A stretch of DNA of 63,992 nucleotides, the filler included, from Basidiobolus ranarum (taxonomy: Eukaryota), in the NCBI GenBank assembly GCA_040143965.1. It is 7 parts of 7 records of this genome, joined end to end, with 100 filler letters (N's around TTAATTAATTAA, not from the genome) between each part and the next. Parts side by side here need not be neighbours in the genome. Positions count along the whole stretch, not along the records: positions 1 to 9,205 come from JASJQH010000860.1; 6 more parts are not named here. One strand, given 5' to 3'. The notes beneath the pieces were generated by a model. The model had not been told where the DNA came from and searched no databases. It saw only the letters and a list, made by a program, of their open reading frames with translations. Below are positions 1 to 49,036 of this stretch, one piece after another (the stretch's first letter is position 1; each line of letters begins with the position of its first letter). The position numbers and the translations under genes were made by a program.

Positions 1-2333
1 AGATTGTCTTCGAAAGGCTGTCGGCATCATCCACTACAATAGATCCAAAACCAAAAAACACAGGTGGAGGGCCTGATTCCAGGAAGTTTTGAAGGGAGGT
101 TGGTGGATCATACTCGCTTGCTAGATTCAAAAAGCAAAATCCGGAAACGTTAATATGTGACCCCCAGTCTTGAGGCTTAGGAATTAAGGTAGGGCTCCAA
201 CAGTAAGTATGAGGGACTCCCAGGTCCTTTACCATGTATGGTCCGACTGTAAATGGTACACCTGATAGCTGAAGTGTTCGTTTTCGAAAGTTGTTGATGA
301 TATCGCCCAGTCCTTGCCATGTAAGTGTCTCTATAGCATCGTACGAGAGGAGATTGAGAACTTGGTTGGAATTCTTGGCATAATCAACCATATTGATAAG
401 TGGGTGAGGAAAGGATCGTGTGGACGACCAAGGCATGGTAAACATAACGTGCAGCGGGATACACAGCTTTTCAGCGCAGTGAATGTGTGCGAACGTTGGT
501 GGATTTGCGATAATTGCATCTGCAAGAAAAGGAACCTGACTTTCCTCATCGGGCTTTGTGCTAACAACAATATCAGGAGTAATAGAAATATTAGATATAC
601 TATCCACCACTAAGATGAACTGTCAACTGAGCTCACCAGGAATCCCAAGCAGAATCTAATATCTCCTTGATCATTCGGCGTTTTTTCGAAATATCACCCT
701 CCTTAATGCTTTGGAGACTGGGGAGAAGGCCTGGATCTACAAAGATAGACATAACATAATGATTAAGTAATCGGCATTTAGATTGTATTAGAAATGAAAA
801 TACTGCGTACTCTTAACCATATACGCCATAAGCTCCACTGGGTCTGAGTAGAATGATTTATGAGTTAACTATCAATTCTACTAATCTACATTACTTGCAA
901 CTCACCTCCTGCAAGGGGATAGAACTCCAATCCAGCGTCTCTTACGAACTTTTGAAATGTTGCGTGTGTTGCCAATCTGACTCGATGTCCGCGTTTAACA
1001 AGTTCTTGGCCAATGGCTAAAAAAGGTTGAACATCTCCCCGACTCCCAACAATTTGAATAACAACATTAAGTGAAGGGACGTGGCGGTCGTGCGAGCTTA
1101 TAGAAGGTTCAAACATTGGGGAGGAATCTGCTAAAAATTCCTCTTCTTCGATTGAATCAGTTACAGAGGCATTAATGGTCACATCAATACGACCGTCATC
1201 GTGCATTTGTATTTGATATGCATCAGGCTGGGTCTCGAGTGCTGCAGGCGTTGGATCTTGCAAGGTAGGTTTACTATTGTATGCAGTGATACTAGGTGAT
1301 CTCGAGAACAAGGATCTCTTTCTTTTTTCTGCTGCGTAGTTTTTGATGATCTTTTGACGCCAATGTGCGTACTCTAGTGGTGTTCCACAAGCCTAACTAG
1401 TTCCAAGATTCTTAGAGACAGCCTGAAAAAATCAATCAACTTGGGTGCTTAATTTGGCAATGGCCTACCTTATCAACGACTGGGGCGTAGATATTTTCTC
1501 TTGGCCTAGCTCTACTTACTCTCGCTTTCCAGAATGCCTTATCGTCCACCATCGCGACCACAAAATTATCCACGAAAGTACGACAGTTATCCCATGCACA
1601 GTTGTATTTTTGATGAGAGGTATTCCAAAGTTTAATAAAGTTAACAGCATCTGCAGGGCTCTGTATGATTCAAAGGTACATCAGTCGGCAAGGTTTGTTG
1701 AGATTGCTAGGTGTTATGACCGAGTTGATACCTTGTAAGTCGAACCTACTTCCGTGACAGTATCATCTGGATTCGCTTCTCCCCATGTCTTGAGAAGGTC
1801 GTCAACAGTTGTTTTTCCAGAACTAAGCTCTACCATAGATGTTTCCATTGACTACAAATACGCAATATGATATGAAAACCTGAATATGTTGTGAGGATAA
1901 GAGCGCTTCAATACAAAGCACTTTACCTTGAGTTGAAGGTCCACCAAGAGAATTTCGTACTAACAGTAATATTTTCACATTAGTAAAATCCAAAATACGC
2001 AAAGCACCGTTTGTAGGATAGTATGCCTTAAGTATGCCTTATTGCGTCTACCTTAAACAATTTTACTACTCCGGCTTCTTCATAGTCTTGCCAGGCGATG
2101 ATGCAGTATGCATGTCTTGATCTTTGATCATTGTATAGTTTTTTCTCGATCCCCCTCATTGCTGACACAAAGAGCCCGGGTTCAAGCAACGCTGATGTAC
2201 CGACAAACACTCGACTAGACGTTGTGGCCGAGGGAGTCTTTTTCAGGAAATCTGAGGAATTGCAAGATGATGGTGATTCTCTCCCGGCATTCTCGGAAGA
2301 TGCTTGTTGTGGATCGTAATTACACCCTTCCAT
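1..2333 (-). CDS. Sterol 3-beta-glucosyltransferase-like (GT28 N-terminal domain, UGT80/ATG26 family) with an N-terminal His/Cys permuted-papain-like domain; 3' end truncated at window edge
   Basis: Manually spliced exons 2333-2052, 1959-1927, 1851-1732, 1660-1469, 1392-906, then further exons to base 1, all with GT..AG introns. Motifs: [88 protein letters not shown]. The start is uncertain (ATG 2333, or a further upstream ATG at 2620). Confidence 0.9.
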
Positions 2334-3777
2334 ACTGTTTTCAAATGAAATCTTGGTCGTAATTGTTTTTGCTGTAAACCTGAACTTCAAGATATATATA
2401 TAGTAATCACAGTCTTGGCAGTTGGAAGAGAGGCTATTTTCGGAGGTGACGTCAGTGAATCCGAATCTGAATCTGAAACCGACACGGTATTCATTGCATT
2501 TGGTCTAAAGCACTGCTATGAAAAGAATACCGAAGGCAGTATTAACATTAGAAATAATGCAGACCTAGTGCTATCAGTGGTTGTACCTTTGGCGTAGGTT
2601 TCATTCGAGTCGGTGTCCATATAATACGAAATGTATACCCATTCTGCCCATGCTGTTTCTCACATTAAGTTAGAAAATATAGTTGACACAAATGTAACTG
2701 ATGAAGATTGTCTATTCAATTGGGTAGCTTAGTAACCTATTGCTCGATGGATCCGATTTATCGTTAAGATTAGATCTTATTTATAGAAACAATCGAAAAA
2801 ATGTACTCTCTTACTAAATCCACTTCCGCCACATTCAAGCCTTCACTACCAAAATAGACGTTATTAAATCTAATCACAAAATTGGTCGCCTCTACAACTT
2901 TCGTCACCCCATTGTGACCCTTTCCACTAAATGCTATCTTTAAGCTCACCACCTCGGATACCCCATCATCGAATATATCCAAACTAAGCCTAAATATGTT
3001 CCCAACAACATCGCCATTGACACTAACAATCAAGGCAGTACCACTCCGTGAACTGAGGCGGCAAAGCTAGTCTCTTCAAAACTTGTGGCCTCTTTATCAC
3101 CCTTGCTCAAAATGAGCTTCTTCGTCTCCACCTCCTCCCTCGAATATACTCCATACAACTCCCTCATGACTCGCATACTTGGCAAAAATAATATCTCATA
3201 ATATTCTCAAATGTCAATCCTCCTTCATCGCCTAAATGTCCGACCTTCGTAATACCCTCATACGATCTAACCCCACCACCTTAGTCCTTGCCAACGAAAT
3301 TGTTCATGTTGTAATCGTGCTGATAATATGGTAGATTGTAGAGTAAGATATCCAAGGAGAATTGAAGGTAAACCGAAATATATTTGATTTTGAACTAGTT
3401 ACTAGCAATATATTGTTGGAGAAAATGATGAATTGCCTAAAGAATGCATTGCAAATCAGTCACCACATTCAACAATAAGGTTACTGATAATCACAGCAAG
3501 GATTTGGCATGTGCGTTTGTATTCAATGTTGGCAATATTAAATAAAACGGAATATAAAAAAATTCCAATTATGTACCATGTTTAAAAATCTCAATATTAA
3601 GCCTAAGGTTAGGTTCTATTCTGATATGCTTGTTCCTATAGAGTAATTGCTAGCTAATATGAACCTATTCCCATTTATTGGGCTTGATAGTAGCATATAT
3701 ATAGTATGGGATCGAGTTTTCTCAAAGCTTATACGGTGCAGTCTGGTGTTAGTTGACACTTTCTGGCATGTACAATA

Positions 3778-4009
3778 TGTTGAAGTATTTTGGGAGTTGT
3801 TGGAAGTGATTTGGAGAACCAGAAGAATTGGTGGTTTTACTTGCTGATTTATTGCGTTCAGGTTGACATTTATACTTTTGTCAAGAAGTAGATATAATAA
3901 CATGTTGAATATGTTTAGGAAGGTCCCAGGAACATGTGTACGAAGTTTGAGGTCGTTTGGACAAGTTTGGGTTAGGCCATTTCTGACAAACTCCCAAAAT
4001 ACCTCAACA
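3778..4009. mobile_element. Partial copia LTR (family 1) closed by an inverted copy of the same LTR end
   Basis: 3778-~3969 resembles the LTR at 20277-20624. The left end TGTTGAAGTATTTTGGGAGTT matches the reverse complement of 3989-4009 at 20/21 nt. Confidence 0.75.
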
Positions 4010-4928
4010 TTTTTAACCCCTACTTTTGAAATAACCCAGAGGCACATCCTTGTTGTTGATTTTTATCATTTTGTTGTATGCAATAATTCATATTTTCAAT
4101 CCAATAGAACAACCAGTGCAATTCACATGTTTCTTCCCATTATCCTAAACATTCCCGATTCATCTCATATATTCACAACAAGATTTTGGTGAGATAGAGC
4201 CACACAGCCCCATACAGTGCTCAATTAAGAAGCCCGAAATCAACTTGAATTCAATGTCTACGCAGACCAATCATTTGTAAAAAGTATTATCAATAACCAG
4301 TTGCGCCCTTAATACAATCTTTTGGGATATGTTGTTTGTACCATTGGAAAACATATTGAGCAGATGTAGAATTCATGACAGCAGTTGAGTTCAAACCCCA
4401 GGAACGCAAGGTTGATAGAAGTCTAGGCTATATGAAAAGTGCTATACAGTATACAATTCGTGTATTTCACCGGAATATCCATCAAGCGGAGTTTTTTACT
4501 TTGTCGTAATATCATTGGAAGTTTGCCAGATTGGTAGCTATTTATTGAATACGGGCCAAAACGGATTAGATATTTAGTAGTAAATATGAGATTGAATAAT
4601 CTTTTCACACTGACCATTAGCGAAAGTGGATGTGTAAGTCATTCTTCGTAATATTGATTTAAGAGAATGTGAGTGATTTGTATGAGCAACCGTCTATTCC
4701 AACTATACTGTTGCATTTGAATGCCATTTGAGCCTACCAAACTGGATTCATCTACAATGCAAATTATATACCAGTGACTGCACATAACGTATAACATAAG
4801 CTTCTTGTCCGATTCACGCTAACATTTCATATGGGTTCAGGGATTTGCAAGTACAATTATTCGATAGGTATTTGAAGTGTTGGGAATATCAATCTTCCAG
4901 GCTTAGCAGCATGCGGTATATAGCGTAC

Positions 4929-4954
4929 ATATATATTTATATATATATATATAT
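4929..4954. repeat. (TA)n microsatellite
   Basis: Run of atatatatttatatatatatatatat. Confidence 0.8.
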
Positions 4955-5248
4955 GCGATCTGATTTCATGTCAACAGCCATTTTAGGAAGGATGACGTCG
5001 TGTGGTGATACTCCACATGGACACAATATCCTGAATCAGCAAGGATTTAATATGCATCCTCAGTTCATCTGGAAGAAGAATACTGAAAGTTGGTTGGAAT
5101 CGAACTTTCCATATCACTGTGCAAGGTAGATGCGTCTTGGGTGAATATTTCTGCTCGCTTCGATTTAGTTGGTCGGTGAGTTAATGCCCTATATAATAAG
5201 GCAGTCTGGCATAGATAGTGCAACTATTCTTACTGCCAATATTCCCCC

Positions 5249-6349
5249 ATGATAAGTATTATTCTAACTTTCTTGTCAGTGAGACTTCTGGAGAGGTATA
5301 CACTGGGAAGAATCGGGAATGTCCCAAATGGTTTTGGCGTAGGCAAACTGATCGCCGCATGCTTCGTTGTCTTTTGTTTTCCTATGGTTGCTGTTAGAAA
5401 CATAATCACCCAGTTTGTGGAAATTAGGTGGGCAAAAGATAACCAAAGTCACGTGGAGTCTGCCCTGAGATCAGCCTACGATGGAACTGGATTTTGGGTG
5501 AATGCGTGCCCAAAGAACAGGTCAGCTCGCCTGATCAACAGAAACGAAATCTGTCTCGATGGATCCTGGAAAAAAACCATTCTGTCCTATTTCCAAAGGC
5601 CTACAATTTGTGTCCCACCACAATGCGAAGTATTGACTAAAATCCACGAAGAAGATGTGCCGCTTCTATTAAAGCACAAGATCTGCATCTCCCAGAGTCG
5701 TATCGTGAAGGATACCTCCCCCACTACCAAGATATGCTTGATTATTTTTACCCTCTATTGGGCATACGTCATCAGTAAGTACACTTACTGTCTTTGGATG
5801 TTCCACTATATACCAGAAAGCTACCAGGCGCAATTCATGTTTCCTGTAAGTATATTTATCCCATTACTGTACTCTTCGGGTAAGTGCATTGCTCCAGTCT
5901 TTGTCACCGTGGAATCCGACCCCCATTCATTGCGCAAGGATTTTAATATAATGGGAACAGTAAACCAAGTTAATGAGGATGTTTACCAGGAAAAGATTTC
6001 CGACTCCAAAGAATCTGCTCGCAGGAAGATATTGATCTGGTACCGGATTGAGCAAGTCTTAGGTTCCATCGTTTACCTAGTTTTGCAATTTGGAGCATAT
6101 TATGGAGTCGGTCAATTGATGGTCTTTGGAGTTGAGGGGACTTTTCCACAACGGTCTCCCCCCATGGCCCTGGTAGCTATGGTTTCGGCTGTATATGTAG
6201 AAGCCATAGCGCATACTACATTGTGTTTGATTCAACTCGGAAAAGCGTATTTTACTAATCGGTTTATCTTGCTACTGCTTTCTCTATCTGGCAAAGTTTG
6301 GAGGTTGATTACTATCATAGCTAGGGTCTGTGTTGTACCAATAGCATAA
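5249..6349 (+). CDS. Hypothetical multi-pass membrane protein (366 aa, intronless)
   Basis: Long ATG-initiated ORF with several hydrophobic segments and a TATA-like tatataa about 60 bp upstream. No family motif recognised. Confidence 0.65.
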   Translation: MISIILTFLSVRLLERYTLGRIGNVPNGFGVGKLIAACFVVFCFPMVAVRNIITQFVEIRWAKDNQSHVESALRSAYDGTGFWVNACPKNRSARLINRNEICLDGSWKKTILSYFQRPTICVPPQCEVLTKIHEEDVPLLLKHKICISQSRIVKDTSPTTKICLIIFTLYWAYVISKYTYCLWMFHYIPESYQAQFMFPVSIFIPLLYSSGKCIAPVFVTVESDPHSLRKDFNIMGTVNQVNEDVYQEKISDSKESARRKILIWYRIEQVLGSIVYLVLQFGAYYGVGQLMVFGVEGTFPQRSPPMALVAMVSAVYVEAIAHTTLCLIQLGKAYFTNRFILLLLSLSGKVWRLITIIARVCVVPIA

Positions 6350-6600
6350 TTATTAATTTATACCAGTTTTGGAAATACCAATTAAACATGTTCTATCTTC
6401 AAATGTTCAACTAGATGAATTATTACTTGCTAATAGTTTGATTATTATGTCCTTACATCTTGGTTTAGTCATCACTGAATCAATCTTGGTACTTTGATAT
6501 CTCTAATGATGTAAAGTAGTTTAAAAAGTTGCAAGAAGGTTTCACGTATTGAACTCAGGTCTCTAAAACCATATAGCCTCTAAATTGACAATACTCAGTC

Positions 6601-6666
6601 AAAACAGTGAATTAATTACCATAAAATAGTGAATTAATTACCATAAAACAGTGAATTAATTACCAT
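6601..6666. repeat. 22-bp tandem repeat x3
   Basis: AAAA(C/T)AGTGAATTAATTACCAT three times in tandem. Confidence 0.9.
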
Positions 6667-7562
6667 GCTGACAAACCTAACAAGTAAATTGTAGCAAATA
6701 ACTAGTATTCCTCTTAATTGTTCATATAATAGGATTTCATACTTGGCAAATTGCTGAAGATTAGGAAGGAGAAAGAAATGAGTTTCAAAATTTGTTGTAA
6801 GAATTCTTAATAGAGAGAAACGTCTAAAGTTCTCATTGATTCCCCAAACTTTGCACACTCTTCCCCAGATCATCTGTAGGTTACTCTTATTTTCTTCAAA
6901 GATCTACGAAAGAATTTATGCCCTTTACCAAGTAGTTTGTATTCAACTCAAAAAATGCAACTGATATTAAATACACTAAATCCATTACAAGTTCTGATTT
7001 CTACTTGTTTGCTTATTATTCAACCTGTCATAATTCCAATGTCTGAAGGTTTTATATGCATATGTTGTAGTGGAGTTCCCAGCCTTCTTAGTTACAACTT
7101 AGTGTCTTGAGCAATGGCCATACACCTTGAGAAGACTTCGGCACAGAATATCATGACGAGCGTTACTTCAGATCATTGTCATGGTGCATTTTCTATGGGA
7201 AAAATGAAGCAGCTGGCAATTAGATAGAGCTTATTCATTCATTAAACTAGATACGGACAGCATATTGCAACTGATAGTTTGAATATACACTGTAACTTGG
7301 GCACGATAAAATACTCCGTAGAGATCAAGTAATGCTTTGAATGTATGCCAATTATATGCTAATGATGAGTCCATTCCCCTTTTTAATAGAAGAGCAATTG
7401 GCTCATAACTTGCGTAGTCATAAAATAATTAATCACCATGTCAAGATTTTGCAGCTTTATATTTAATGCGAGCTAATAACTGAAATTGCAAAGAAGTTTT
7501 ATTGACTCTAATCAAGCAGAATCGAGTGTGGTTTGCTAATTAGCCAACCTTGTACCCATCAT

Positions 7563-8099
7563 TTAATCTTTACGATGAGCGGAGCATATATACCAAGAAG
7601 GCTGGAGAGTTTTCCAGGTTTTTATACCTAGCACCTTCAACGCCATACGAGCAGTTTTAATATGAGGATTTGCCATTCTTTCCACTTCCTTCATCATGTT
7701 CCTTTGTAACAAAATACTCTGCGGGAGCTCACAAGCCAGAGAATACTGCGCAAAATATAAGTATGGAAGGACTTTCCAGTCATCATAATTGGGATCTCCA
7801 AGATTATCAAATCCGAACTTGAACTCTCTTGGAATAGAGATGTCATACTTGGATAATTCATCCCTTTCCTCTGAGTGATCTCGCTTCCCAAGAGCTATCT
7901 CGTCAGAAGAAGATGCGGCATTCACATCCTTTGATTTTTCATTCATTAAACTTTTGCATTCAGTACTATCCCTCCAAAAGTCCATTAGATCTCTCGGGTC
8001 AGGATAGTCATCACAACATTCTAGTTTGGTAAGTTGCTTTGCATACTGGGAGAGATCAAATCCGTAGTAGAATCTAGCGTACCCTACTTCCATACCCAT
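7563..8099 (-). CDS. Hypothetical protein (178 aa, intronless)
   Basis: ATG-initiated ORF with protein-like composition and a TATA-like motif about 65 bp upstream. No family recognised. Confidence 0.6.
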   Translation of the reverse strand: MGMEVGYARFYYGFDLSQYAKQLTKLECCDDYPDPRDLMDFWRDSTECKSLMNEKSKDVNAASSSDEIALGKRDHSEERDELSKYDISIPREFKFGFDNLGDPNYDDWKVLPYLYFAQYSLACELPQSILLQRNMMKEVERMANPHIKTARMALKVLGIKTWKTLQPSWYICSAHRKD

Positions 8100-9205
8100 T
8101 GTTCAAGTTAGCTTCTGTACTATATTTTCACTTACCACCTTATGTATGTCAGCCCTCCGAGCTTATATTTATGGGATACTGTAGAATAGTTGCTTAGTGC
8201 GTCAGTTTATTTACACTGACATAGGCCAAATGGACTGCGGCAACTAGGGATTACTCACCGTAATTGGTTAGTCGCTGCTCCTTATCCTGTATTGGGCCCC
8301 AATCAAATCAATACTATATGTACTGTCTTACTCAAGCCAGTCACCCTCAGGCTTCATTAGGTTGTGGATTGATTATTTCCCAATATGCAATTTATTGATG
8401 GTTTTCATGTGGTCAAAAGTATCTCTATCATATACGTGTACAAAAAGATCTCTTTGCATTGGTAAATAGGTGATGGTGTAGAGCCCATTAGTATGATATA
8501 TCCCTAGTCAAGGAATTTTCGCAGTATAGAACGATATCAAAACACTATCAGAGTGATGCATCAAAAAGCCTGAATATACTGCCTATTATTGCACCAAGTG
8601 AATGTTGCAATCGTATACAATTGATCTCAATCAACAAATTCTATGATAAGTTGTCTACTCAAGCAACAAGAGGCGCTACTCATGCCCCGACTATGTAAGC
8701 ACTATAGGGAGCAGAAAGAGTCAAGCGAACTTCACAACATTGTGTGCTATTTACTTTAGAAGGTCAGCAGAGCTATCTTTCTCTGCGGTATAGTAATTTT
8801 TGTACTCAATGACATGCTATGAGTATATTAAAGGAATGTTATGATCTACACTAATCTTAATAAATCGTTAGACTGCGGTTTGCTCTGTCACAATTGGTGG
8901 TTGGTGTTAACGAGAGAAAGAGAGAACATTGCAGGGTTAGGGGGGATGAAAAACGCCAGGTGGTGTGGACTTTATTTAGCTTATATACTAAGCTAAACAA
9001 AGTGACTATCAAGACATTAATCTTCTAAGATATTGTGACAAAACTGGATTGTATCCATACTTAACTTGATGACCAATGTAATCCAGTTCTGAGGATGTAT
9101 ATATAGTGTCAAGGAGCAGGGGTGATAAGCAGAAAGGAAGATACTCAGTACAAACCAAATGGACAATAGGACAAAAACCTGGAATAATGGGGATCAAAAA
9201 AGGTG

Positions 9206-10189: not shown

Positions 10190-12333
10190 ATGCCTACAGT
10201 TAACGTTGATAAAGAAATTTTCTACGAAATTCTCGGAAAGCAATATTGTGAGTGTTATTGGCTTTCAGTTTTAGCTGAAGTTCCTTTTAAAGTATAAAAA
10301 CTGACGTTTTTAATTGAAAAGCCACTGATGAATTCCGTGAATTATGCTTCGACTTCGGTATCGAACTTGAGGAAGATGTATGTCCAGTTTGGTTTTGTCA
10401 GCAATTTTTCTTCTGATTATTCATCTTGGTTTTTTCACTTTATCGTAGACCTCAGTAAAGGAAATGGCTGCCAAGATGGGTGGTGCTAAGGAGGCCGAAG
10501 ATCTCTCCGAACGTGCTTTGTTGAAGATCGATATCCCAGCCAACAGGTAATTTCAGTGAGAAAATAATCTTGAAGTATTTGCTTGGAAATTCTAATATTT
10601 CTTTCAGATATGACTTATTATGTACCGAGGGTCTCTCCCGTGCTTTGTTAATTTTCCAAAACAAAATTAAACCTCCTACCTACAAGCTTGTCGCCCCTAA
10701 GGATGGCAAACTCCAGAAGATACTCGTTCGCCCCGAGGTGAGTATTAGACTCTATTACAGAACCATCTCTACTTCGATATTAATTCTATTATTGAATTTA
10801 TCCAGACTTCTCAAATCAGACCTTATGTTGTTGGTGCTGTGTTACGCGATATCACCTTCACTGAAGACAACTACAACAACTTCATTGACTTGCAAGACAA
10901 GCTCCATAACAATATTTGCAGGTTAGTATTCAGCCAGTTGCTTTGAAACTGAATTTTCTGGTTACTTACGTGTGTTTCCTTTGTATTCCAGAAAGCGTAC
11001 CCTTGTCGCCATTGGAACCCACGACCTGGATACTGTCGAAGGCCCTTTCACCTATGAAGCCTTGGCTCCTAAGGAAATCCAATTCACCCCTTTGAATCAA
11101 ACTCAAAATATGAACGGAGAACAACTCATGACTTTCTATGAAAAAGACAAGCATCTTTCCAAGTTCTTGCCTATTATCAGAGATTCTCCAGTCTACCCAG
11201 TCATCTATGACTCTAAGCGTACTGTCCTCTCACTTCCACCCATCATTAACGGTGATCACTCCAAGATCAAGCTTACTACCAAGAATGTCTTCATTGAATG
11301 TACTGGTACCGACTTGACTAAAGCCAAGATCGTCTTGAATACCATGGTTACCATGTTCTCTCAATACTGTGGTGAAAAATGGAGCATCGAGCCTGTTGAA
11401 GTTGAATACCCTGATGGCAAGACCTTCACCTATCCCGATCTTAGCTCTCGTACCGTCAAGACCGACTCTGACTACATCAATAGTATGGTTGGTATTAAGC
11501 TTACCCCTGAGGAGGTTGCTGCTCACTTGAACAGAATGTCCCTCAATGCTACTGTTACTGATAAGGAAGCCAAGGAAATTAGTGTTGAAATCCCTCCTAC
11601 CAGAAGTGACATCCTTCATCCTTGCGATATTATGGAAGATGTTGCTATTGCCTATGGATTCAACAATATTCCCAAGACCTTCCCTAAGACCACCACCATC
11701 GGTAGTGCCTTACCTGTCAACAAGTTGAGTGATTTGCTCAGAAGGGAGTTCGCTTTGTCCGGATTCACCGAAGTGTTACCTTTGATTCTGTGCTCCCATG
11801 ACGAAAACTTCGCTTATCTTAACAAGGAGGATGATGGTAAGACCGCCGTTAAACTTGCCAACCCTAAGACTGTAGAATACCAGGTTGTTCGTAACGCACT
11901 CCTTACTGGTATCTTGAAGACTGTCTGCTCCAACAAGAAGCAACCTCTTCCTATCAAGATTTTCGAGGTTTCTGATGTTGTCTTCAAGGATGACACCCAG
12001 GAACGTCGTGCTCGTAACGAGCGTCATGCCTGTGCCCTCTACTGCAACAAGACTGATAGCTTTGAAACCATCCATGGTCTTCTTGACCGTGTAATGCAAA
12101 TGCTTAATGTCAAGCTAGTTGCCCCCTCTTCGAAATCAGCAGGTTATTACATTGCTGAATCAGGAAACCCTACTTTCTTCCCCGGCCGTAGTGCTGATAT
12201 TTATTATCGTCCTGCTAAGGGCGAGGCCTCTGTTATTGGTGCTTTTGGTGTCTTACATCCTGAGGTCCTTGGTAAATTCGAAATTCCTTTCCCTTGTTCT
12301 GCCCTCGAATTCTCCGTTGAGCCTTTCTTGTAA
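10190..12333 (+). CDS. FRS1: Phenylalanyl-tRNA synthetase beta subunit (cytosolic)
   Basis: Starts MPTVNVDKE. Motifs: [91 protein letters not shown]. Several short GT-AG introns. Confidence 0.97.
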
Positions 12334-21602: not shown

Positions 21603-24600
21603 ATGTACAGTGAAAATAATGAGAGTGAAGCTCACCACGATACTCTACGAGAAGTACTTCACAAACTATCTGCTGATTCCTGGGAACCTTGGAAGTTAAG
21701 TATAACAGAAGTAGCCGATAGACTAGCAGTGGATCCTAGTGTTGGTCTTAATGAACAAGAAGTGCCAACTCGATTGGACTTATTCGGTGAAAACCTGCAG
21801 ATTAACCTAAAACGTCGGCTTGAATGGTATCAGTTTGTCTTGCTTGTGTGTAGGGATCCTATTATTATACTGTTAATAGCAGTTGTTGGGTTGTACCTAT
21901 TTTGGGGGGAGAGGGTTGAAGCAATAACAGCAGTTGTGGTTATCATATTTGCGCTAGGACTCGAAGTAAGAACTATAGCAAGTTAAACATTCTCTCTTTT
22001 GAATTTGTATTTATACTTTTGTCTTTGGTATAGCTGTTAATTGATTGGAAAGCAAATATTACCATCAACTCGCTTTCAAAGGAAGTTCCGGAAAATATCA
22101 TGGTAGTCCGTGGCGGTCACGAACATATTGTAGTGTCACGAAACTTGGTTCCAGGAGATATCGTGATCATTACGCAAGGGCAAAGAGTTCCTGTTGATGG
22201 TGTACTCATCAATTGTAGGGAGCTTGGTGTCGATGAAAGTCTTTTCACCGGAGAAAATGGTCAAGTCCCTAAGTCCTCTCTATATGAGGCATCCGAAACA
22301 GAAGGTATCTCAAATAGCCCCTCTTATGATTCTCATCCTAACCCTATTAAATAACCATCTCATCCTAACCCTATTAAATAACCATCCACCTTGCGGTATT
22401 TTGCAAAAGATTCCACTATACCCTCTGGTTATGTTTGCTCCGGAAGTGTGGTCACAAAAGGAAAAGGTAAAATTTTGCACATTCATTCAAGCATTTAAAA
22501 GTATCACCCAGGTTTACCTAGTTATTTACAGGGGTTTTACTGGCCACTGCCACGGGTAAGCATACACGCTTAGCTACCATTCAAAACTCTACAATCAGTG
22601 AAAATGAGAAAACTCCATTGCAAATACTTGCTAGAAGTCTCACTAGATACTTATCAATCTTGGGGTTACTCGTATCCATTATCTTGCCAGCTATTAGTAT
22701 AATGAAAGGAAAGAGTTGGTGTGAGGCTTTACTTGCTGGAATAGGGTTGGCTATAGCGACCATCCCTGGCGCGCTATTATCACTGATAGACATCATCCTT
22801 GTCGTATCTTCTCAAGAACTATCCCGGAAAAATTTATTGATACGTAATCTAAAAGCTGCAGAATCTCTAGGTTCTGTCTCAGCTATTGTGACGGATAAAA
22901 GCGGGACCTTGACCTCCAATATTCTGAGAGTATCCTCAGCAATAGTTCTCACGCGACCTGACCAGCATTCTGACCAGAGTTTTCAGATTTGTTGTCGGAG
23001 AATTGCTCCAAGTTCTAACAAAGATATGACCCAATATCTACTACCGCTTACCATTCTTTGGGCACTTTCGATGGATCAATTTGCATGTGACAAGCTGTTT
23101 CAACTTGTTCGTGAAGGGGATACAACAAGCTCTGTTGACCACTCTCCTCTTCCGCTAGCAACCGGAATTGACAAAGATACGTTTGATTCAGCTATATTTG
23201 AACTTTTCAATTCAAGTGAGACTTCAATGGAAGTACAACGCTATTTGATCCGATCAGCGCTGCTTGTTTTCTCTAGATTCCCAGTACCCATTTACGAAGT
23301 GCCATTTGATATCTTGAATAGGGTGTCTTTCAGGACTCGAGGATCTACATCAAACAAAAACAGTGGAAACAAAATCACCATTGTCAGAGGAGCCCCAGAA
23401 ACTATACTTAATCTTTGTGATCGAATTTGGGTGAGTGGCTATGAAAAAGAATGCTCAGAAAATGAAGTTCATCATCACCCTACAATAGATACTGAGATGC
23501 TCAACGATGTAGAAGTCTTGACTGGGTATATTACTTCAAAACTGATCGAATCATTTAATGACGTCGCTAGGAAAGGAAGACGGGTCTTAGCCTACGCTTA
23601 CTCAACTACATCTCATGCTGAAGGAGAAGAACCTCCTAATGATTTTATATTTGCTGGAGCGTACGTGTTTAGCGATCCTGTGAGAGAAGAAATACCTGAT
23701 GCCATTAAAGAATGTCAAAATGCTGGAATCAGAGTTGTTATGGCCACCAGCGATCATCCAGAAACTGCCTTGGCCGTTGCATCATATACCGGAATTAGTG
23801 CAATAAATTCTTCTAATGAGCCTGGGCGAATTCTTCTTGGACAGCAACTTGATAGTGTGGCGAGTAATGCTTTGGTAGCTGAATTGGTTAAGAAGACCGA
23901 TGTCTTTGCTAGACTTAGTCCAGATAATAAGCTTCGTATTGTTAGATCTTTGCAAGCAGAGGGTCATGTTGTTGCCTTCATCGGTGACGGAATTAACGAT
24001 ATTTCTGCGTTAAATACTGCCGATGTTGGTATTATCATAGGTGGTGTAGCCACTACCGCGGATATTGCTTTAGATCATGCTTCACTAGTCATACTTGGAC
24101 ATCGTTTTGAAGCTGTGGTGTACTGTTTAAGAGAAGGAAGACGCATGCTTGAGAACATTAACAAAGCCATCACTTTCTACTTGGCAAGCAAACTTGCACT
24201 AACATCTCTATTTACCTTGGTATTTGTGATACGAGGCACTTTCCCGTTAAAGACTATACATATCATACTACTCGAATTGTTTGTTAACCTAGGAGCTAGT
24301 ATCACATATGTTATTGAAAGAGCTGAATCGAATATCATGCTGACTCCTCCACCCTCCATGAATCGACCCAAAGGATGTCATGGTGCCTTCAAGTCAAGCA
24401 CCGGGCTACAAATAATTTACTCCGCTACTTTACTCTTTTTATCTACAGGCAGCTCATACTTGTATGGTGCTATTTATGATACGGAGAAGAGACTTAGTAC
24501 AACCATGTTGTTTATATCTTTTCTTGTGAATCACCTAGTTCTAGGTTTTGTCTTGCGCTCAAATACGACACCTATCAGAAAACAAGGGCTTTTTACCAAC

Positions 24601-24840
24601 CGCAACTTTCTGCTTTGGCTTGGCCTGGTATTAGGCTTCATACTGCTATATGTTTTTGTTTCAACTATCCGATTAGCCCTTGACCTCTCTACCCTAAACA
24701 AAGATGAATGGATAGTGATAATGACAGGTGCAGGACTTCAGCTAATCATATCGGAAGTATGGAAGGAACTTCGTTGGCAGTATTTCAAATGTGAAAGAGC
24801 ATTAGTGAGTTCAGAGCAATTACCGCTCCTGTCTAATTGA
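21603..24840 (+). CDS. P-type (type II-like) cation-transport ATPase with atypical motifs
   Basis: LVPGDIV, VDESLFTGEN, KTPLQ, DKSGTLT, RGAPE, DPVR, VFARLSPDNKLRIVRSLQ, GDGIND. Introns at ~21966-22034, probably 22305-22409, and ~22467-22531. Confidence 0.9.
22331..22384. repeat. 27-bp tandem duplication, probably intronic
   Basis: TCTCATCCTAACCCTATTAAATAACCA twice. Each copy has a CTAAC branch-point-like motif and an in-frame TAA. Confidence 0.9.
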
Positions 24841-24982: not shown

Positions 24983-26101
24983 TCAAATCTCTCTGGCATA
25001 GATATAGAATTTATGGAGCACTGGATGATTTTGACCAGAGGTCTGATTCATGGCATCTGGTTGATCCCTCCAATCGATGATTTCCATATGAATTAATTTG
25101 AATTTAGCTTCAAGCATTTCTTGTTCGAACAATTCGATTTCGGCCAAGTAGCGATTCCGCAATGGAAGAACAAAATAAACACGTGAGGATGCTGTCCGGC
25201 TCAAAAACAATTCCAAGACGATGGGGATTGCGCGAGCTTGCCATGTGTCGTAAATAGCGTCTGTAGCGATTATATTCTCAAAATGGTCTCTGTATAATTC
25301 CTCATCACTATTGAGATCAATGGGTATATTGCGGTTGATATTGTCAATATTCTTCGAACTGTGCTTAAAGTACTCCCACCAGTCGAGTTTGCGTACCTGG
25401 CATATCTCTGAATATCCACTAAGATCGATATTTATCTGGACGTTGTCAAGAACACTTGGGTGATAATCGGTCATCGTTACATGGGATGCTCCTAGTTTAG
25501 CACACATCAGTCCAGCAAGTCCAGTACCACAACCTAACTCTAATATTCTTTTTCCAGATAAATCCAATTCGTAACCTGGCTCTCCGACTTCTACTTTACG
25601 TTCGTAGCCTTTTGTATGTCCACATAGTAGTTTTCCCATCACAATACTAGCAGACCAAGTTCGACAACCTAGATCAGCTTCAGCGAAAGTAGGCTCTCTA
25701 ATTTCCAACTTGATATTTTCTATGCCCTTTCGCTGACATTCGAATATCCAGAGTTGAGAGACCGGTCCTGTGGCGGCCCTACCACAGCGATTAGCTATCA
25801 TAGAACTTAACCGCTCCATCAACATGTCCTCTTCAAACATCCCTTTTGCACGGCGCTTCATTGTATGAACGACCCACTCATTGCACATACTTTTAACATA
25901 TTCTGTATTAATAGAAGATTCAGAAGACTCTTCTTCAACCGGTAAACACTGTGAACGATCCCATATTTCAATAGCAGCATTCTTTTCACCAAAATGCTCA
26001 TCTATTACATCTAGTAGTGAAGTCACCTCAACTTCATCCATAGGATCGCAACGATTCAGTCGTAAAAGTAAGGAAACGTCCTCATTGTGTGTAGTCTCCA
26101 T
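24983..26101 (-). CDS. SAM-dependent protein-lysine methyltransferase (Methyltransf_16, EFM2/METTL21-like)
   Basis: DLGCRTWSAS, ILELGCGTGLAG, MTDYHPSVLDN, LDW, IIATDAIY. Confidence 0.9.
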   Translation of the reverse strand: METTHNEDVSLLLRLNRCDPMDEVEVTSLLDVIDEHFGEKNAAIEIWDRSQCLPVEEESSESSINTEYVKSMCNEWVVHTMKRRAKGMFEEDMLMERLSSMIANRCGRAATGPVSQLWIFECQRKGIENIKLEIREPTFAEADLGCRTWSASIVMGKLLCGHTKGYERKVEVGEPGYELDLSGKRILELGCGTGLAGLMCAKLGASHVTMTDYHPSVLDNVQINIDLSGYSEICQVRKLDWWEYFKHSSKNIDNINRNIPIDLNSDEELYRDHFENIIATDAIYDTWQARAIPIVLELFLSRTASSRVYFVLPLRNRYLAEIELFEQEMLEAKFKLIHMEIIDWRDQPDAMNQTSGQNHPVLHKFYIYAREI

Positions 26102-26716
26102 AACTGAAATGTCTCTGGAAAAGTGATAGATTCCAATTTCTAATACAAGTGATTACCTTGTAGTAGAAAGAATCATATTGAAGGATAGCCGAGATTGAAA
26201 AAAAAAGTGATGTTAATTTGAATTGATCTAGAATCAAGCTTAAATACTACAGTTGCAGATCACTGGCATTCATAGGTAAAATCCAACCAAGGATCATCGT
26301 TGAGTGAATTTGGCCAGAATTATGGTAGGATTTAATCAACACTAATCGAGAGTTGTCTCATCAAAATAAAAGTTCGCAGGTAATGATCAACCTTCGGTAA
26401 ACTGGAATAGACTTATTAATGTAAACATCTTGGTACAGAAACCCGAAATGAAAGAGGTTCTTGAACTGAGAATAACCTGAATCCCACTTCTCTCATAGAA
26501 AACTTGAACGAAGTTTGAGTAGATCAATCTGGTGTGACTCCTGATGTTCACAAGAAAGCCCTGTTTGGTTATATGGACTTTTGTCCAGTGGACCTACATC
26601 TAGTACTGTATCTCTCCGCTTCGAAGAGGAAGACATGAGAAGAAAACAATATAAAAGTCAGCCATGGTTGGCAATGTCCAAAACATCATCCATCTGTCAA
26701 AGCCAATACTCTAGCC

Positions 26717-31382: not shown

Positions 31383-34248
31383 ATGCCCGGCGCCAACCTT
31401 GCACGCGGGAAGACTCTAAGTCGGCCGGACAGAAGTCATGCTCCTGCCCCAATGTTGAGTGGCAAGGACCAAAGAGCAACGTTCGACCCCTGGGTTTTGT
31501 TCTCAAAAATAGTCACTTTTTGGGCACCTGGCTTTCTCCTCGCTAAATGCGGTCTACCTGATAAGCAAATGCAACAAGCATGGAGGGAAAAAGTAGCCCT
31601 CTGCTTTATTGTAGCTTTCATTGGTGCTTCAGTGGTATTTCTTACGTTGGGCCTCCCATATGTATTTTGTCCAGCGTCTACAGTTGCAAACCAACAGAAT
31701 TATCAATCTGCTTCACCTGGTGTAGCTGGTAAGTCTTGTATATCTATACTCTCTACTTTTTAGACAGTGTAATAATCTTTATATTGAACCAGGTCAATTC
31801 GGAGTTGACGGTATCATGTATAGTATAGTTGGACAAGGTATCCCTGAATTGGCGTCTTTGGCACCAAGCGCAGATGCCAGTTTCAAGTTCGTACATGCGC
31901 CTATTGATGAATGTACCAAAGCAGCAAAGTACAACTACGCTGCTGTTTCTTTCGATATCTGTAAGACAACTACCTGTTTACCTTTTTCTGACTTATCTCA
32001 AAATACAGTTCAGAATAGTACTCGCAGAGTTGGTTTTGATTGGAGTCACCTCCCTGAAAACCACCTCGTTCTGGATGGACGAGTTTTATATATGAATCCA
32101 TATATGACTCAAAATACGGCTCCACTCCCGAACGACCTTGCAGATCGAATAATCCGTGACAGTATCAAGAACGGCATCGTAGATGTCACTAGGTCTTTTA
32201 TGCGTCGAAGTGAATTAGAGAGCGCGAGTAAATGTCTGGGTAAAAAATATCTAGCTGGATATTTGAGTAAATCTACACCTGGTTGTTTTGGTGTTCAGCT
32301 CTTCTTCGTTGTATCTATGGTTGTCATTCTTGGAATTGTCATGGCAAGATTTATCATGGCAGTCATTTTTGATTGGTTCATTTCGTTTAGATTATCCAAG
32401 CCACCGCCAAGGAGTATGCTCAAGCCTATAGTTGCCTCTAACAACGTCCCATGGGCCACTCAGACTTCCAATGTGTCCCATCTCCGTGCCCCAATGCCTA
32501 GTCTAAACCCCAACGAATTGTTTACCGTACTTCTTGTGACATGTTATTCAGAGGGTGAAAGTTCACTGCGGTGCACCCTAGAAAGTTTGGCTGCTACCGA
32601 GTATGGAGACGACCACAAGTTACTTTTCGTTATCTGTGATGGAATAATTACTGGTAGTGGTAATGATCGCAGTACACCTGACATTTGCGTTGACCTCTTA
32701 GAGCTCGATCCCTATTATGGACCAGATCCTGAACCCCAAAGCTATATTGCTGTTGCGGCAGGTTCTAAGCAACACAATATGGCAAAGGTTTACGTTGGAC
32801 ATTTCCATCATAAGGGACATCGTGTGCCAACGGTGGTTGTAGTGAAATGTGGTCCACCCGAAGAACAAAGCGCACCAAAACCCGGAAACAGAGGAAAGCG
32901 TGATTCACAGTTGATTTTAATGAACCTCTTCAGTCAAGTCATGTACAACGACAAGATGACCCCTCTAGATTACGATCTCTTCAAGAAAGTCACCCATCTA
33001 ATGGGTGTCACTCCTGACTACTTTGAAATTGTGCTGATGGGGGATGCCGATACTAAAGTCTACCCCGACTCTCTACGTCTTTTGATTAATTGCGTACAGA
33101 ATGATCCTATGATTATGGGACTCTGCGGTGAAACTAGAATTGCCAATAAGCGAGACTCGTGGGTAACGGCAATTCAAGTTTTTGAGTACTACATTTCGCA
33201 TCATCTTGGTAAAGGATTCGAGTCAGTATTTGGTGGTGTAACGTGTCTTCCGGGCTGTTTCTGTATGTATCGTTTGAAAGCTCGTAAAGGTGATAACGAT
33301 TGGGTGCCCATCATTACTAAACCTGAAATCGTCCAGGAATATTCTCAAAATGTGGTCGACACTCTTCATCAAAAGAATCTGCTACTGCTGGGTGAAGATC
33401 GCTTCCTCACCACTCTTATGTTACGTAACTTCCCCAACCGTAAAATGATGTTTGTTCCTCAAGCAGTTTGTAAAACAGTGGTTCCCGATGAGTTTCAAGT
33501 GTTATTATCTCAACGTCGTCGTTGGATTAATTCTACCATTCACAATCTCATGGAGCTTGCTCTGGTCCGTAATCTTTGCGGTACCTTTTGCTTCTCTATG
33601 CAATTTGTCGTAGTTATGGAATTGCTTGGTACCGTTTCCTTACCTGTAGCTATTATTATGACTTTCGTTTTGATCTTCAGTTTGGCTACAACGACTTTCA
33701 CAACTGCCGCTAGTTATTTCCCGTTGATCTTACTATTACTGAATTTGTTTCTACCCGCTATCCTTATTTTATTTACCACGCGCAAATTGATTTACATTGC
33801 TTGGATGTTTGTATATCTACTAGCCCTGCCCGTTTGGAATTTCGTACTACCTGTTTATGCTTATTGGCATTTTGATGATTTCTCTTGGGGTGAAACACGT
33901 AAAGTTGCTGGTGAGGCTAAAGGAGATGATCATGGCAAGAAGGATGGTACATTTGATGCTACTAAAGTTCCACTTCGACGATGGGAAGACTACGAACGTC
34001 GCCATTTACGTTCCATTAAACGCCGAGAAAGGAAGCAACGTAAGGAAACCCAAGCAGTCACTTCCAACAACAGTATGTATCACGAAGACAATGAATCCGC
34101 AGGGTTACTAGTCAGCGATTCCAATCAACTCCCACATGGCTCGTTTAGTGCCCGGGATTCCACGTCAGAGTTAGAATATTACGAAGAAGGATTTGATCAG
34201 CAATATGATTATCATGGGAAGGGAATTGAGCCTAGACATTTGTTCTGA
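31383..34248 (+). CDS. Chitin synthase, division 2 (class IV/V-like, no myosin motor domain), one intron ~31729-31792
   Basis: [78 protein letters not shown]. Confidence 0.97.
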
Positions 34249-46473: not shown

Positions 46474-47113
46474 ATTAAGTGCTGTCCCGATGCTTAGGTA
46501 TCATTGTATCATAGGTTACCCGTCACAATGAGGTTTTACATACATCGACGTACTTTCTGGGGCAATGTCTGGCTGCTTCTCTCATGTATAAGCGAGAAGT
46601 AGAATTAATTTGCCCACGTATATTCGTGAGATATACTGAACTATTGAGCTCCATGTTCGGTTTTGTACTCTCTACACCATCGATGAAATTGTGGGATTTA
46701 ATAAAAACCAGAAATTTGGAAAACGATTACAATTCTGATTAGTTTGTATAAAATCATCGCATTTGAAGTGCATGTAAACCATAGTCTTAATTCTTATTGT
46801 TTACCCCATGGATAATAAGGAATTTTTTGGGGGAGGACTTAAAAACAGCATATACTACGAATCCAATAATTCTAAAGATTTTAGAACTTTTCAAATCCAT
46901 TTTCAATCCAATAAGATTGATTAAACGAATCGATCTCTTGTTTGTAAATACATCTCACCCCTTCAAAAGATAACCGACACTGACGCTTGTTGTGTATTCT
47001 AGTCACTTCGAGTGCGGGAAATAAGAAGTGTAGCCAGAAATTCCCTAAATTAACCTTGACTACAATTACCCACATTTCTGATATCATTTTAGTCTCTTGA
47101 TTATCAAATCAAT

Positions 47114-49036
47114 ATGTATAGAGCGAATACTCGTAAATCTACCGCAAGTGTTACCTCCAATTCACGGGAGACAGACACTGTCTCTGCTGTCGAAAGTACT
47201 GCTAGTTCAGCCCGTCAGAGACAATCTAAACGGGATGAGATCATTCGTAAAAAAGCTGAAGCTGAACTTTCCCGTAAGAAATCCACACCTAAGCGACAAA
47301 ATACTCGTTCTAAAAAGAGTCCTGGTACCGTGTCCGCTTTACACCATTCTCCCGCCTTGACCATTCGCGAAAACATATCGATTATTGAGGCGTCTCAACT
47401 TATGGCTGCTAAAAGAACTGATAGTGTGTTGGTGGTAGATGCTGACGAGCATTTGTGCGGTATCTTCACCTCGGTAGATCTCACATATAGAATTGTGGCT
47501 CATTCTCAAGATGCCCGTACTATGCCAGTTTCAACTATCATGACCAAGAATCCATTGTGTGTAACCAATGATACATCGGCCAATGATGCTTTAAATATCA
47601 TGGTACAGCGTAATTTCCGTCATCTTCCCATTTGTAACGACGAGGGAGATGTGGTTGCTTTACTCGATATTACAAAATGTTTGTGTGAGGCATTGGATAG
47701 AATGGAACGCGCTTATGGCTCTAGTAGAAAGTTGTATGATGCATTGGAAGGAATTGAAAAGGAGTGGTCTGTACAACAAGCACCTATGTTACGTTTTATG
47801 GAATCGATGCGCGATAAAATGGCCTGCCCAGATTTATCTATCTTACTTGATGGAACTAATCCACCTGAAGTTTCACCTAGAACTAGTGTCCACGATGCGG
47901 CCAAAATAATGAAAGAACAAAGAAGTAACGCTGTCTTGGTCATGGAGAATGGCCAACTCGTTGGTATTTTCACTACTAAAGATGTTGTTTTGCGAGTCAT
48001 TGCTGCTGGTTTAGATCCTACCAAATGCAGCGTCGTAAGAGTAATGACTCCTCATCCTGATTGCGCTAGCGTAGACTTGACTATTCTTGAGGCTTTAAGA
48101 AAGATGAACGGTAAGCTTATAGTTTTGATCATTTCATTAAGAAGGCTAGAGATTTATAATTCTCCCTTATAAAGATGGTAACTATACCAATCTACCCGTC
48201 GTCAATGAATCCGAGCAAATCATTGGTTTAGTGGACGTTCGCAAGTTGACTCACGTTACTCTAAAGACTGTACGTATGAACACAAAAATCGATGACAAAC
48301 ACGTACCCATAATTAACATATGCATTTATAGCTTGAGAACATCCAAAGTGGAGATACCGAATCTGATGGAGGACCTGTATGGAGTAAATTTTTTACTGCT
48401 TTCGACAACGATGCCGAATCTATTGTCTCTGACGCTCGTAGATCTGAGGGTCAGATGCCTGGAACCCCAGAGATTTATCCCCACGAATCCGCCTCTGCAG
48501 TTGAAGAGACGACATCCGGTATATACTCCTCATCTTACCTTCATTCACAAGATGGTACTTTTGTGTTCAAGTTCAGTACCGCTGATGGTAAAGTCCACCG
48601 TATCATATCCGAATCCAACAATTTCGAGAAACTTCGAGATATTTTGTATTCAAAGGATCACAGCCTCGACCCTCAGAATCTCTTGGACATTTGTTATGTT
48701 GACGATGAAGGAGATATTGTGGTTATTTCTAGTGATGCTGATTTAGAACATGCTGTCAATATGGCCAAACATCATGGTCTGGATCGATTAAAACTCTCTA
48801 TGGGGGCAGAGTTCATTGAAAATCCACTTGAGGAGCCTCAGGCCGAAATTCGTGAACCAACTCCCACGCCAGCTCCTGTTCTGATTCCCACTCCTCAAGA
48901 GTCCACTCCAGCTCCTCCAACTCCACAGCCTAAAAGTTCATTCGGATTACCTATTTCTGATGAATTATTGTATGGTCTTGGAGGTGGTTTTGCAGTTGCT
49001 ACCATCATGGGATTTATAATGTCTAGGATGAAATAA
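47114..49036 (+). CDS. CBS and PB1 domain protein (S. pombe Mug70-like), two introns, C-terminal TM
   Basis: RQRQSKRDEIIRKK, PGTVSAL, EASQLMAAKR, GIFTTKDVVLRVIAAGLDP..CSVVRVMTPHPD, FVFKF….GKVHR, PB1 YVDDEGDIVVISSDADL. Confidence 0.92.

Follow-up and report, generated by a model that had tools for sequence, protein, structure and literature searches.

A divergent papain-like domain, a candidate for fatty-acyl chemistry, ahead of a predicted sterol glucosyltransferase in Basidiobolus ranarum and chytrid fungi

The DNA analysed here, referred to as the window, comprises 63,992 nucleotides of the fungus Basidiobolus ranarum (assembly GCA_040143965.1), in seven parts joined end to end, of which the first (positions 1 to 9,205) comes from record JASJQH010000860.1. 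Its start is occupied by what is very likely one minus-strand gene that begins with the ATG at 2333, has at least eight exons and encodes a papain-like domain followed by a glucosyltransferase. The original prediction for this locus had proposed a His-Cys domain of PPPDE/LRAT type, spliced in frame to a sterol glucosyltransferase. The features of the gene are as follows, in window coordinates.

About 2402-2392, minus strand: TATA-like run TATATATATA, about 60-70 nucleotides upstream of the ATG, read from the sequence; a possible core promoter.
2052..2333, minus strand: exon 1, with the ATG at 2333, a leader of about 40 amino acids, the first strands of the predicted papain-like domain and His74; its 3' end may instead be 2070 or 2067.
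1960..2051, minus strand: intron 1, 92 nucleotides, GT..AG, phase 0; alternative donors exist.
1927..1959, minus strand: exon 2, 11 amino acids, with the invariant Tyr-Glu on the strand following the His strand; skipping it costs 9 bits (see below).
1852..1926, minus strand: intron 2, 75 nucleotides, GT..AG, phase 0.
1732..1851, minus strand: exon 3, 40 amino acids, with the invariant G-x-T-x-K at its end; the NCBI start Met (1848) lies inside it.
1661..1731, minus strand: intron 3, 71 nucleotides, GT..AG, phase 0; also in the NCBI model.
1469..1660, minus strand: exon 4, 64 amino acids, with Tyr164 and Cys171 in Y-x5-N-C-R-x-F-x-D; the Cys begins a helix in the predicted fold.
1393..1468, minus strand: intron 4, 76 nucleotides, GT..AG, phase 0; also in the NCBI model.
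906..1392, minus strand: exon 5, with a predicted TPLEY..W..K helix, an acidic linker and the start of the glycosyltransferase (GSRGDVQPF; Pfam PF03033, E 1.8e-14).
811..843, minus strand: exon 6, glucosyltransferase, preceded by the intron 905-844; part of the public protein P0001 as reproduced from the window.
637..736, minus strand: exon 7, glucosyltransferase, preceded by the intron 810-737; likewise part of P0001.
1..560, minus strand: exon 8, glucosyltransferase, preceded by the intron 636-561; it is cut off at the window start, where the partial public protein also ends.

In the splicing check, the four introns that separate exons 1 to 5 (2051-1960, 1926-1852, 1731-1661 and 1468-1393) were found to start with GT, end with AG and lie in phase 0, and each contains an in-frame stop when retained. 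Joining 2333-2052, 1959-1927, 1851-1732, 1660-1469 and 1392-906 yields 371 open codons up to 906, and with the three downstream exons (843-811, 736-637 and 560-1) the spliced frame reaches 602 codons with zero stops. Within a frame open from 2504 to 2028, the first ATG past the upstream stop is the one at 2333. The codon cat at 2114-2112 encodes His74 of the spliced protein and tgt at 1585-1583 encodes Cys171, while a Tyr codon at 1606-1604 (Tyr164) lies exactly seven codons ahead of Cys171. The introns of the original prediction, its stop-free junction between the ATG at 2333 and the exon that opens the glycosyltransferase (GT28), and the codons that it named for the His and the Cys are all borne out by this reading. 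As the gene continues beyond position 1, the window lacks the UDP-sugar half of the glucosyltransferase and any C-terminal region.

Part of this gene is already public. Exon 4 matches a single protein with 100% identity, hypothetical protein K7432_011299, partial, from Basidiobolus ranarum (P0001, 495 amino acids), whose sequence is obtained exactly when the window is spliced with exons 1848-1732, 1660-1469, 1392-906, 843-811, 736-637 and 560-about 5. Introns 3 and 4 are used by P0001 and hence form part of the public annotation. The NCBI model starts at the internal Met at 1848, in exon 3, and therefore cuts the N-terminal domain in half, lacking introns 1 and 2, the first 105 codons and His74.

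Homologues were sought with phmmer, using exon 4 as query in an exhaustive search of 1.84 billion representatives at E<=0.001. Five proteins were obtained: the window's own, three from chytrids (P0002 from Nowakowskiella sp., P0003 from Boothiomyces macroporosus and P0004 from Clydaea vesicula) and one repeat protein. The last (P0005, 306 amino acids, E 4.2e-5) was rejected as a repeat artefact, given that it matches in four short stretches and has neither GT28 nor the His or Cys motif. Cluster members and profile searches add proteins from Lobulomyces angularis (P0010, 1015 amino acids), Boothiomyces sp. JEL0838 (P0006) and Terramyces sp. (P0011), as well as P0007. In the chytrid homologues the segment matched by exon 4 forms the latter half of a domain some 180 amino acids long, directly upstream of Glyco_transf_28, and six chytrid species carry the whole N-terminal domain ahead of the same glucosyltransferase, so that the architecture for which the original prediction had suggested a search in other fungi does exist there. 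Overall identity between the window domain and the chytrid domains is 26-34%. NCBI names these homologues hypothetical proteins, and one UniRef entry names the GT28 domain only.

Further searches were seeded on exact words or patterns, for which absence is weak evidence: among proteins of 70-356 amino acids only P0002 was found, among longer proteins only P0003, P0004 and P0011, no relative was seen in viral contigs with the domain profile and P0010 as queries, and 213 pattern matches in metagenome contigs included no relative. With tblastn, no second copy of the N-terminal domain was found elsewhere in the window. The narrow distribution seen in these searches, Basidiobolus and six chytrid species, limits the generality of the fusion. 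Two side observations concern the homologues themselves. P0006 (1960 amino acids) reads as the whole protein twice over, in two complete copies placed head to tail, probably because the annotation merged tandem genes. Just before the domain, a proline-rich motif, LPPPLP-x-R in Boothiomyces and Terramyces and PPALPLR in Clydaea (alignment columns 1-12), is present; it is absent in Nowakowskiella and in the window leader.

These homologues allow the two gene models to be compared. The spliced window domain (amino acids 40-233) aligns with residues 52-236 of the Clydaea protein P0004 in one high-scoring segment pair (E 2.7e-31), and also with P0003 (2e-32) and P0002 (1.7e-24); junctions 2, 3 and 4 are free of gaps in the multiple alignment and the chytrid homologues are collinear across all four junctions. 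Against a family hidden Markov model (HMM) built from the five chytrid domains, the model of the original prediction scores 149.2 bits, a version with exon 2 skipped 140.0 and the NCBI start at 1848 only 96.2, the gain from exons 1 and 2 being about 53-56 bits. Judged by the collinear alignments and the HMM scores, the five-exon model therefore appears to be essentially right and the public model truncated. For the 3' end of exon 1 there are rival positions: two alternative phase-0 GT donors for intron 1, 2069 (GTAGTA, 152.3 bits) and 2066 (GTAAAA, 150.6 bits), score 1-3 bits better than 2051, removing an insertion of 6-7 window residues relative to the homologues. That the public model is correct, with translation starting at Met 1848 and 2333-1927 being a separate small gene or non-coding, is most improbable: K7432_011299 does begin at 1848, and with intron 1 retained the open frame ends at 101 codons, but such a start falls in the middle of a domain that is unbroken in the proteins of all six chytrid species, and it discards exons 1 and 2, which by themselves match the first domain half of the homologues (E 5.7e-12) and account for the rise in HMM score from 96.2 to 149.2 bits.

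The second part of the protein is readily assigned. P0001 matches PF03033 (Glyco_transf_28) with 81.7 bits (threshold 26.2), and its residues 191-493 align with yeast UGT51 (5gl5) at E 3.5e-48; in the Lobulomyces homologue P0010, where the C-terminal UDP-sugar half is present, residues 307-732 match UGT51 at E 8e-83. The partner is thus predicted to be a UDP-glucose:sterol glucosyltransferase of the UGT51/Atg26 type, the sterol acceptor being assigned by homology only. The usual fungal enzyme combines GRAM, PH and catalytic domains, as described in PMC9698648, whereas Pfam finds neither a GRAM nor a PH family in P0001 or P0002-P0004, the sole trace being PH_LRR1 at E 0.074 in P0004. At the other end of P0010, residues 799-969 are similar to VPS13A (E 2.9e-9) and to a C-terminal stretch of VPS13C (chain residues 3434-3589, E 6.2e-6), a region that Pfam does not name in the related P0004 and that may be a membrane or lipid-droplet targeting part replacing GRAM/PH. 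In comparison with yeast UGT51/Atg26 (5gl5, 5xvm), hence, the catalytic part of the window protein is clearly homologous, while an N-terminal papain-like domain is found instead of GRAM/PH and the full-length Lobulomyces homologue adds the VPS13A/C-like region.

Concerning the N-terminal domain, sequence profiles say little. Pfam assigns no family to the N-terminal window exons taken singly, nor to the N-terminal part of P0001 at E<=10. Peptidase_C97 (PF05903) matches one of the six domain sequences (E 0.0071), and in the whole-protein scan its best score, 15.3 bits in Nowakowskiella only, stays below the gathering threshold of 29.2; LRAT (PF04970) reaches E 0.19 in one of six, short of a Pfam match. 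A profile search of PDB sequences returned serum albumin and other noise only (E>=0.036).

Predicted structure says more. For the Clydaea domain, an AlphaFold2 model computed from the six-row alignment has a mean predicted local distance difference test (pLDDT) of 72.7 and a predicted template modelling (pTM) score of 0.71, and shows five strands and four main helices. His43 begins strand 42-50 and Cys135 lies in the first turn of helix 134-146, at the same alignment columns as the His and Cys of the window, so that a strand His precedes a helix-N-terminal Cys as in permuted NlpC/P60 enzymes. The T-P-L-E-Y-x-x-W-x-x-K segment that follows the domain in all six sequences (window 1392-1350, at the start of exon 5) is modelled as a long helix (176-192 in the Clydaea model). 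Foldseek gives no match at E<=0.001 in the PDB or in the viral database BFVD. In an independent scan of 48,161 chains with the model, papain-like or NlpC/P60 proteins occupy seven of the top ten rows (6v98, 2wp7, 6r99, 7zv6, 7zot, 2if6 and 3kw0), and PPPDE1 and DeSI-1 are the nearest solved folds. TseH, YiiX and Aichivirus 2A are taken by us to belong to this papain-like/NlpC-P60 superfamily. PMC10318531 places C92 (3kw0), C97 and LRAT among the papain-like enzymes. Structural neighbours in the ESM Atlas, with template modelling scores of 0.48-0.63, include LRAT, Peptidase_C97, Lnb_N and DUF3750 clusters and are treated as leads only; 'PTB domain' clusters from its feature search (0.90) were put down to chance. 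As modelled, the domain resembles solved permuted NlpC/P60 members, and the N-terminal stretch of about 180 amino acids is predicted with considerable confidence to adopt a circularly permuted NlpC/P60 (papain-like) fold.

The active-site pattern is consistent with this fold. Invariant across the six aligned domains are the His, a Trp seven residues on, Tyr-Glu on the next strand and G-x-T-x-K, together with one Trp and one His of the helix that precedes the nucleophile and, beyond the nucleophile, R-x-F-x-D. The His is kept in 6/6 domains, the Cys in 5/6 and the complete His/Tyr/Cys set, with Tyr-x6-Cys spacing, in four (window, Clydaea, Boothiomyces copy 2 and Nowakowskiella), and such retention at 26-34% identity is the pattern expected of an active site. 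In PPPDE proteins the centre is His-Tyr-Cys, given in PMC9012467 as His38/Tyr101/Cys108 for PPPDE1 and His166/Tyr258/Cys280 for CLN5. The window domain has the same arrangement, with the Tyr seven residues ahead of the Cys as in PPPDE1, and His74, Tyr164 and Cys171 form its putative triad. LRAT-type enzymes use a Cys-His-His triad according to PMC10318531; in the six domains no conserved His is found within 25 columns after the invariant His, where the invariant Tyr-Glu stands instead.

Since the Pfam thresholds for PPPDE and LRAT are not reached and the Cys-His-His triad of LRAT is lacking, the N-terminal domain represents a new, divergent family within the permuted NlpC/P60 enzymes, nearest to PPPDE/CLN5 and neither LRAT nor Pfam-defined PPPDE. 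The two weak points that the original prediction had foreseen, loss of the His and Cys among orthologues and failure to match a permuted papain fold, are therefore not seen: the residues persist in six and five of six domains, respectively, and papain-like proteins dominate the top rows of the fold scan. Its family label survives in part. The permuted papain-like nature and the PPPDE side of 'PPPDE/LRAT-type' agree with the fold scan and with Tyr-x6-Cys, while the LRAT side is dropped, given the missing triad and the E of 0.19.

Comparison with the nearest characterised systems shows how far the family has departed from them. With PPPDE1/DeSI-2 and DeSI-1 (Peptidase_C97; 3ebq, 2wp7) identity is about 10-12% in structural alignments; the window family shares the Tyr-x6-Cys spacing of PPPDE1 in four of six domains, but has an extra disordered loop after the first strand and is fused to a glycosyltransferase, whereas PPPDE1 and DeSI-1 are free-standing. 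CLN5 (6r99), a lysosomal cysteine-based palmitoyl thioesterase and BMP (bis(monoacylglycero)phosphate) synthase, shows no detectable sequence similarity to the window domain; its Tyr258 and Cys280 are 22 residues apart against 7 in the window, and, unlike the window domain, it is glycosylated, lysosomal and extended by a C-terminal domain. LRAT/PLAAT (HRASLS) enzymes and Aichivirus 2A differ by the second conserved His, replaced in the window family by Tyr-Glu, and no C-terminal membrane anchor directly follows the window domain. Finally, hypovirus polyproteins such as Trichoderma harzianum hypovirus 1 ORF2 hold a UDP-glycosyltransferase (UGT) and a PPPDE domain in one polypeptide, as reported in PMC6920978 and PMC6950361. 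There the domains are listed as UGT then PPPDE, the opposite of the window gene, within a replicase polyprotein where a protease role is assumed. No specific relationship to hypoviruses emerged, as viral contig scans gave no relatives and fold matches to hypo-like polyproteins were weak (E 0.065-0.64).

Regarding function, acyl thioester chemistry is suggested for the N-terminal domain because its partner is a lipid enzyme, because the homologue P0010 ends in a VPS13-like region, because palmitoyl thioesters are cleaved by CLN5, PPPDE1 and PPPDE2, the characterised proteins closest in fold, and because CLN5 has been described as a BMP synthase. According to PMC9012467, the substrates of the three proteins include a 6-thio-palmitoyl beta-glucoside probe, and their peptidase activity is small; the literature places the BMP synthase activity of CLN5 alongside transacylation routes. 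A lipid role is chemically reasonable given this recent shift of CLN5, PPPDE1 and PPPDE2 from 'peptidase' to fatty-acyl thioesterase or transacylase. In the mechanism proposed here, the glucosyltransferase would make steryl glucoside at the membrane; Cys171, activated by His74 and positioned by Tyr164, would form a fatty-acyl thioester intermediate; and the N-terminal domain would move or remove an acyl chain on a lipid or lipidated substrate at that same membrane. The most specific guess would be acylation or deacylation at the 6'-OH of the partner's steryl glucoside product, i.e. a step of acyl steryl glucoside metabolism. As an overall explanation, a multidomain lipid enzyme whose acyl chemistry is coupled to steryl glucoside has about an even chance of being right, and the balance is equally level for catalytic activity of the N-terminal domain on fatty-acyl (thio)esters. 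That acyl steryl glucoside specifically is its substrate or product is doubtful, and it is rather unlikely that the PPPDE/CLN5-like domain is a steryl glucoside 6'-O-acyltransferase, or the corresponding deacylase, in a 'Rosetta stone' fusion with the glucosyltransferase that makes its substrate.

Three other roles have to be weighed against acyl chemistry. The domain could be a protein isopeptidase of the DeSI/PPPDE kind, a deSUMOylase or deubiquitinase acting on proteins near the glucosyltransferase, for instance in autophagy-type membrane events, and not on lipids. PPPDE1 and DeSI-1 being the nearest solved folds and Peptidase_C97 the only weak Pfam match fit this possibility, as does the description of C97 proteins as deubiquitinases or desumoylases in PMC10318531; it becomes quite improbable in view of the very low peptidase and high palmitoyl thioesterase activity given for PPPDE1 and PPPDE2 in PMC9012467, of the lipid enzyme as fusion partner and of the resemblance of the end of the full-length homologue to the C-terminal region of VPS13, a lipid transfer protein. 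A self-processing protease that frees the glucosyltransferase in cis, as in viral polyproteins, is very unlikely. There is no obvious reason why a cellular enzyme of two domains should be processed, no conserved cleavage-type motif was seen, the TPLEY..W..K segment after the domain is conserved and modelled as helix, and viral fold matches at E<=0.001 are nil; what speaks for self-processing is the occurrence of PPPDE next to UGT in hypovirus polyproteins and a set of weak fold matches to hypovirus-like and picornavirus polyproteins (E 0.065-0.68).

The paralogues bear on whether the domain is catalytic at all. Copy 1 of Boothiomyces has Asn for Tyr and Ser for Cys, and copy 1 of Terramyces also lacks the triad Tyr and keeps the Cys; these losses weigh against a catalytic role and would suit a lipid- or membrane-binding module or regulatory pseudoenzyme that replaces the GRAM/PH targeting of Atg26/UGT51. 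The domain does occupy the position where PMC9698648 places GRAM and PH in the usual fungal enzymes, and the family is highly divergent from its active relatives. Against such a non-catalytic role stands the persistence, despite 26-34% identity, of the His in every aligned domain, of the Cys in all but one and of the full set in four, the window included, which makes it improbable. An active enzyme of acyl chemistry is the reading we prefer, at the strength given above.

The rest of the window looks like ordinary fungal nuclear DNA, with a guanine plus cytosine fraction of 0.34-0.42 and no tRNA genes found. Six further long open frames have matches that make up an ordinary fungal housekeeping context:

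10927-12333: phenylalanyl-tRNA synthetase beta (PheRS beta).
22522-24840: P-type cation ATPase.
24983-26152: Methyltransf_16 (lysine methyltransferase).
31726-34248: class IV-like chitin synthase, 828 bits.
47093-48172: CBS-domain protein.
49552-51558: GH15 enzyme with a trehalase-like N-terminus.

We found no paper on a cellular fusion of a PPPDE-like domain with a sterol glucosyltransferase; the papers found that join PPPDE and glucosyltransferase in fungi all concern mycoviruses, and in the main text of the 2023 survey of papain-like enzymes (PMC10318531) glycosyl- or glucosyltransferase does not occur. The original prediction knew of no described fusion of this kind, which agrees with these searches for cellular proteins and needs amending for viruses, given the UGT and PPPDE pairing reported in hypovirus polyproteins. 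What is described here is a new family with a narrow distribution, which belongs to a superfamily already known and occurs in a cellular architecture that is new, joining two kinds of enzyme that also co-occur in those polyproteins.

The fusion is a candidate answer to a long-open question, namely which gene acylates steryl glucosides. According to a 2025 review (PMC12167035), plant genes for a steryl glycoside acyltransferase have yet to be identified, and according to a figure legend in a 2022 review (PMC9698648) no steryl glucoside acyltransferase has been characterised in fungi. If the domain does carry out this chemistry, free-standing PPPDE/DeSI-type proteins of plants and fungi would become candidates for this reaction on lipids, and no longer for the cleavage of peptides, and so would the PPPDE domain beside the UGT in hypovirus polyproteins. 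If it is only a regulatory or targeting module, it would still represent an alternative to GRAM/PH targeting in early-diverging fungi.

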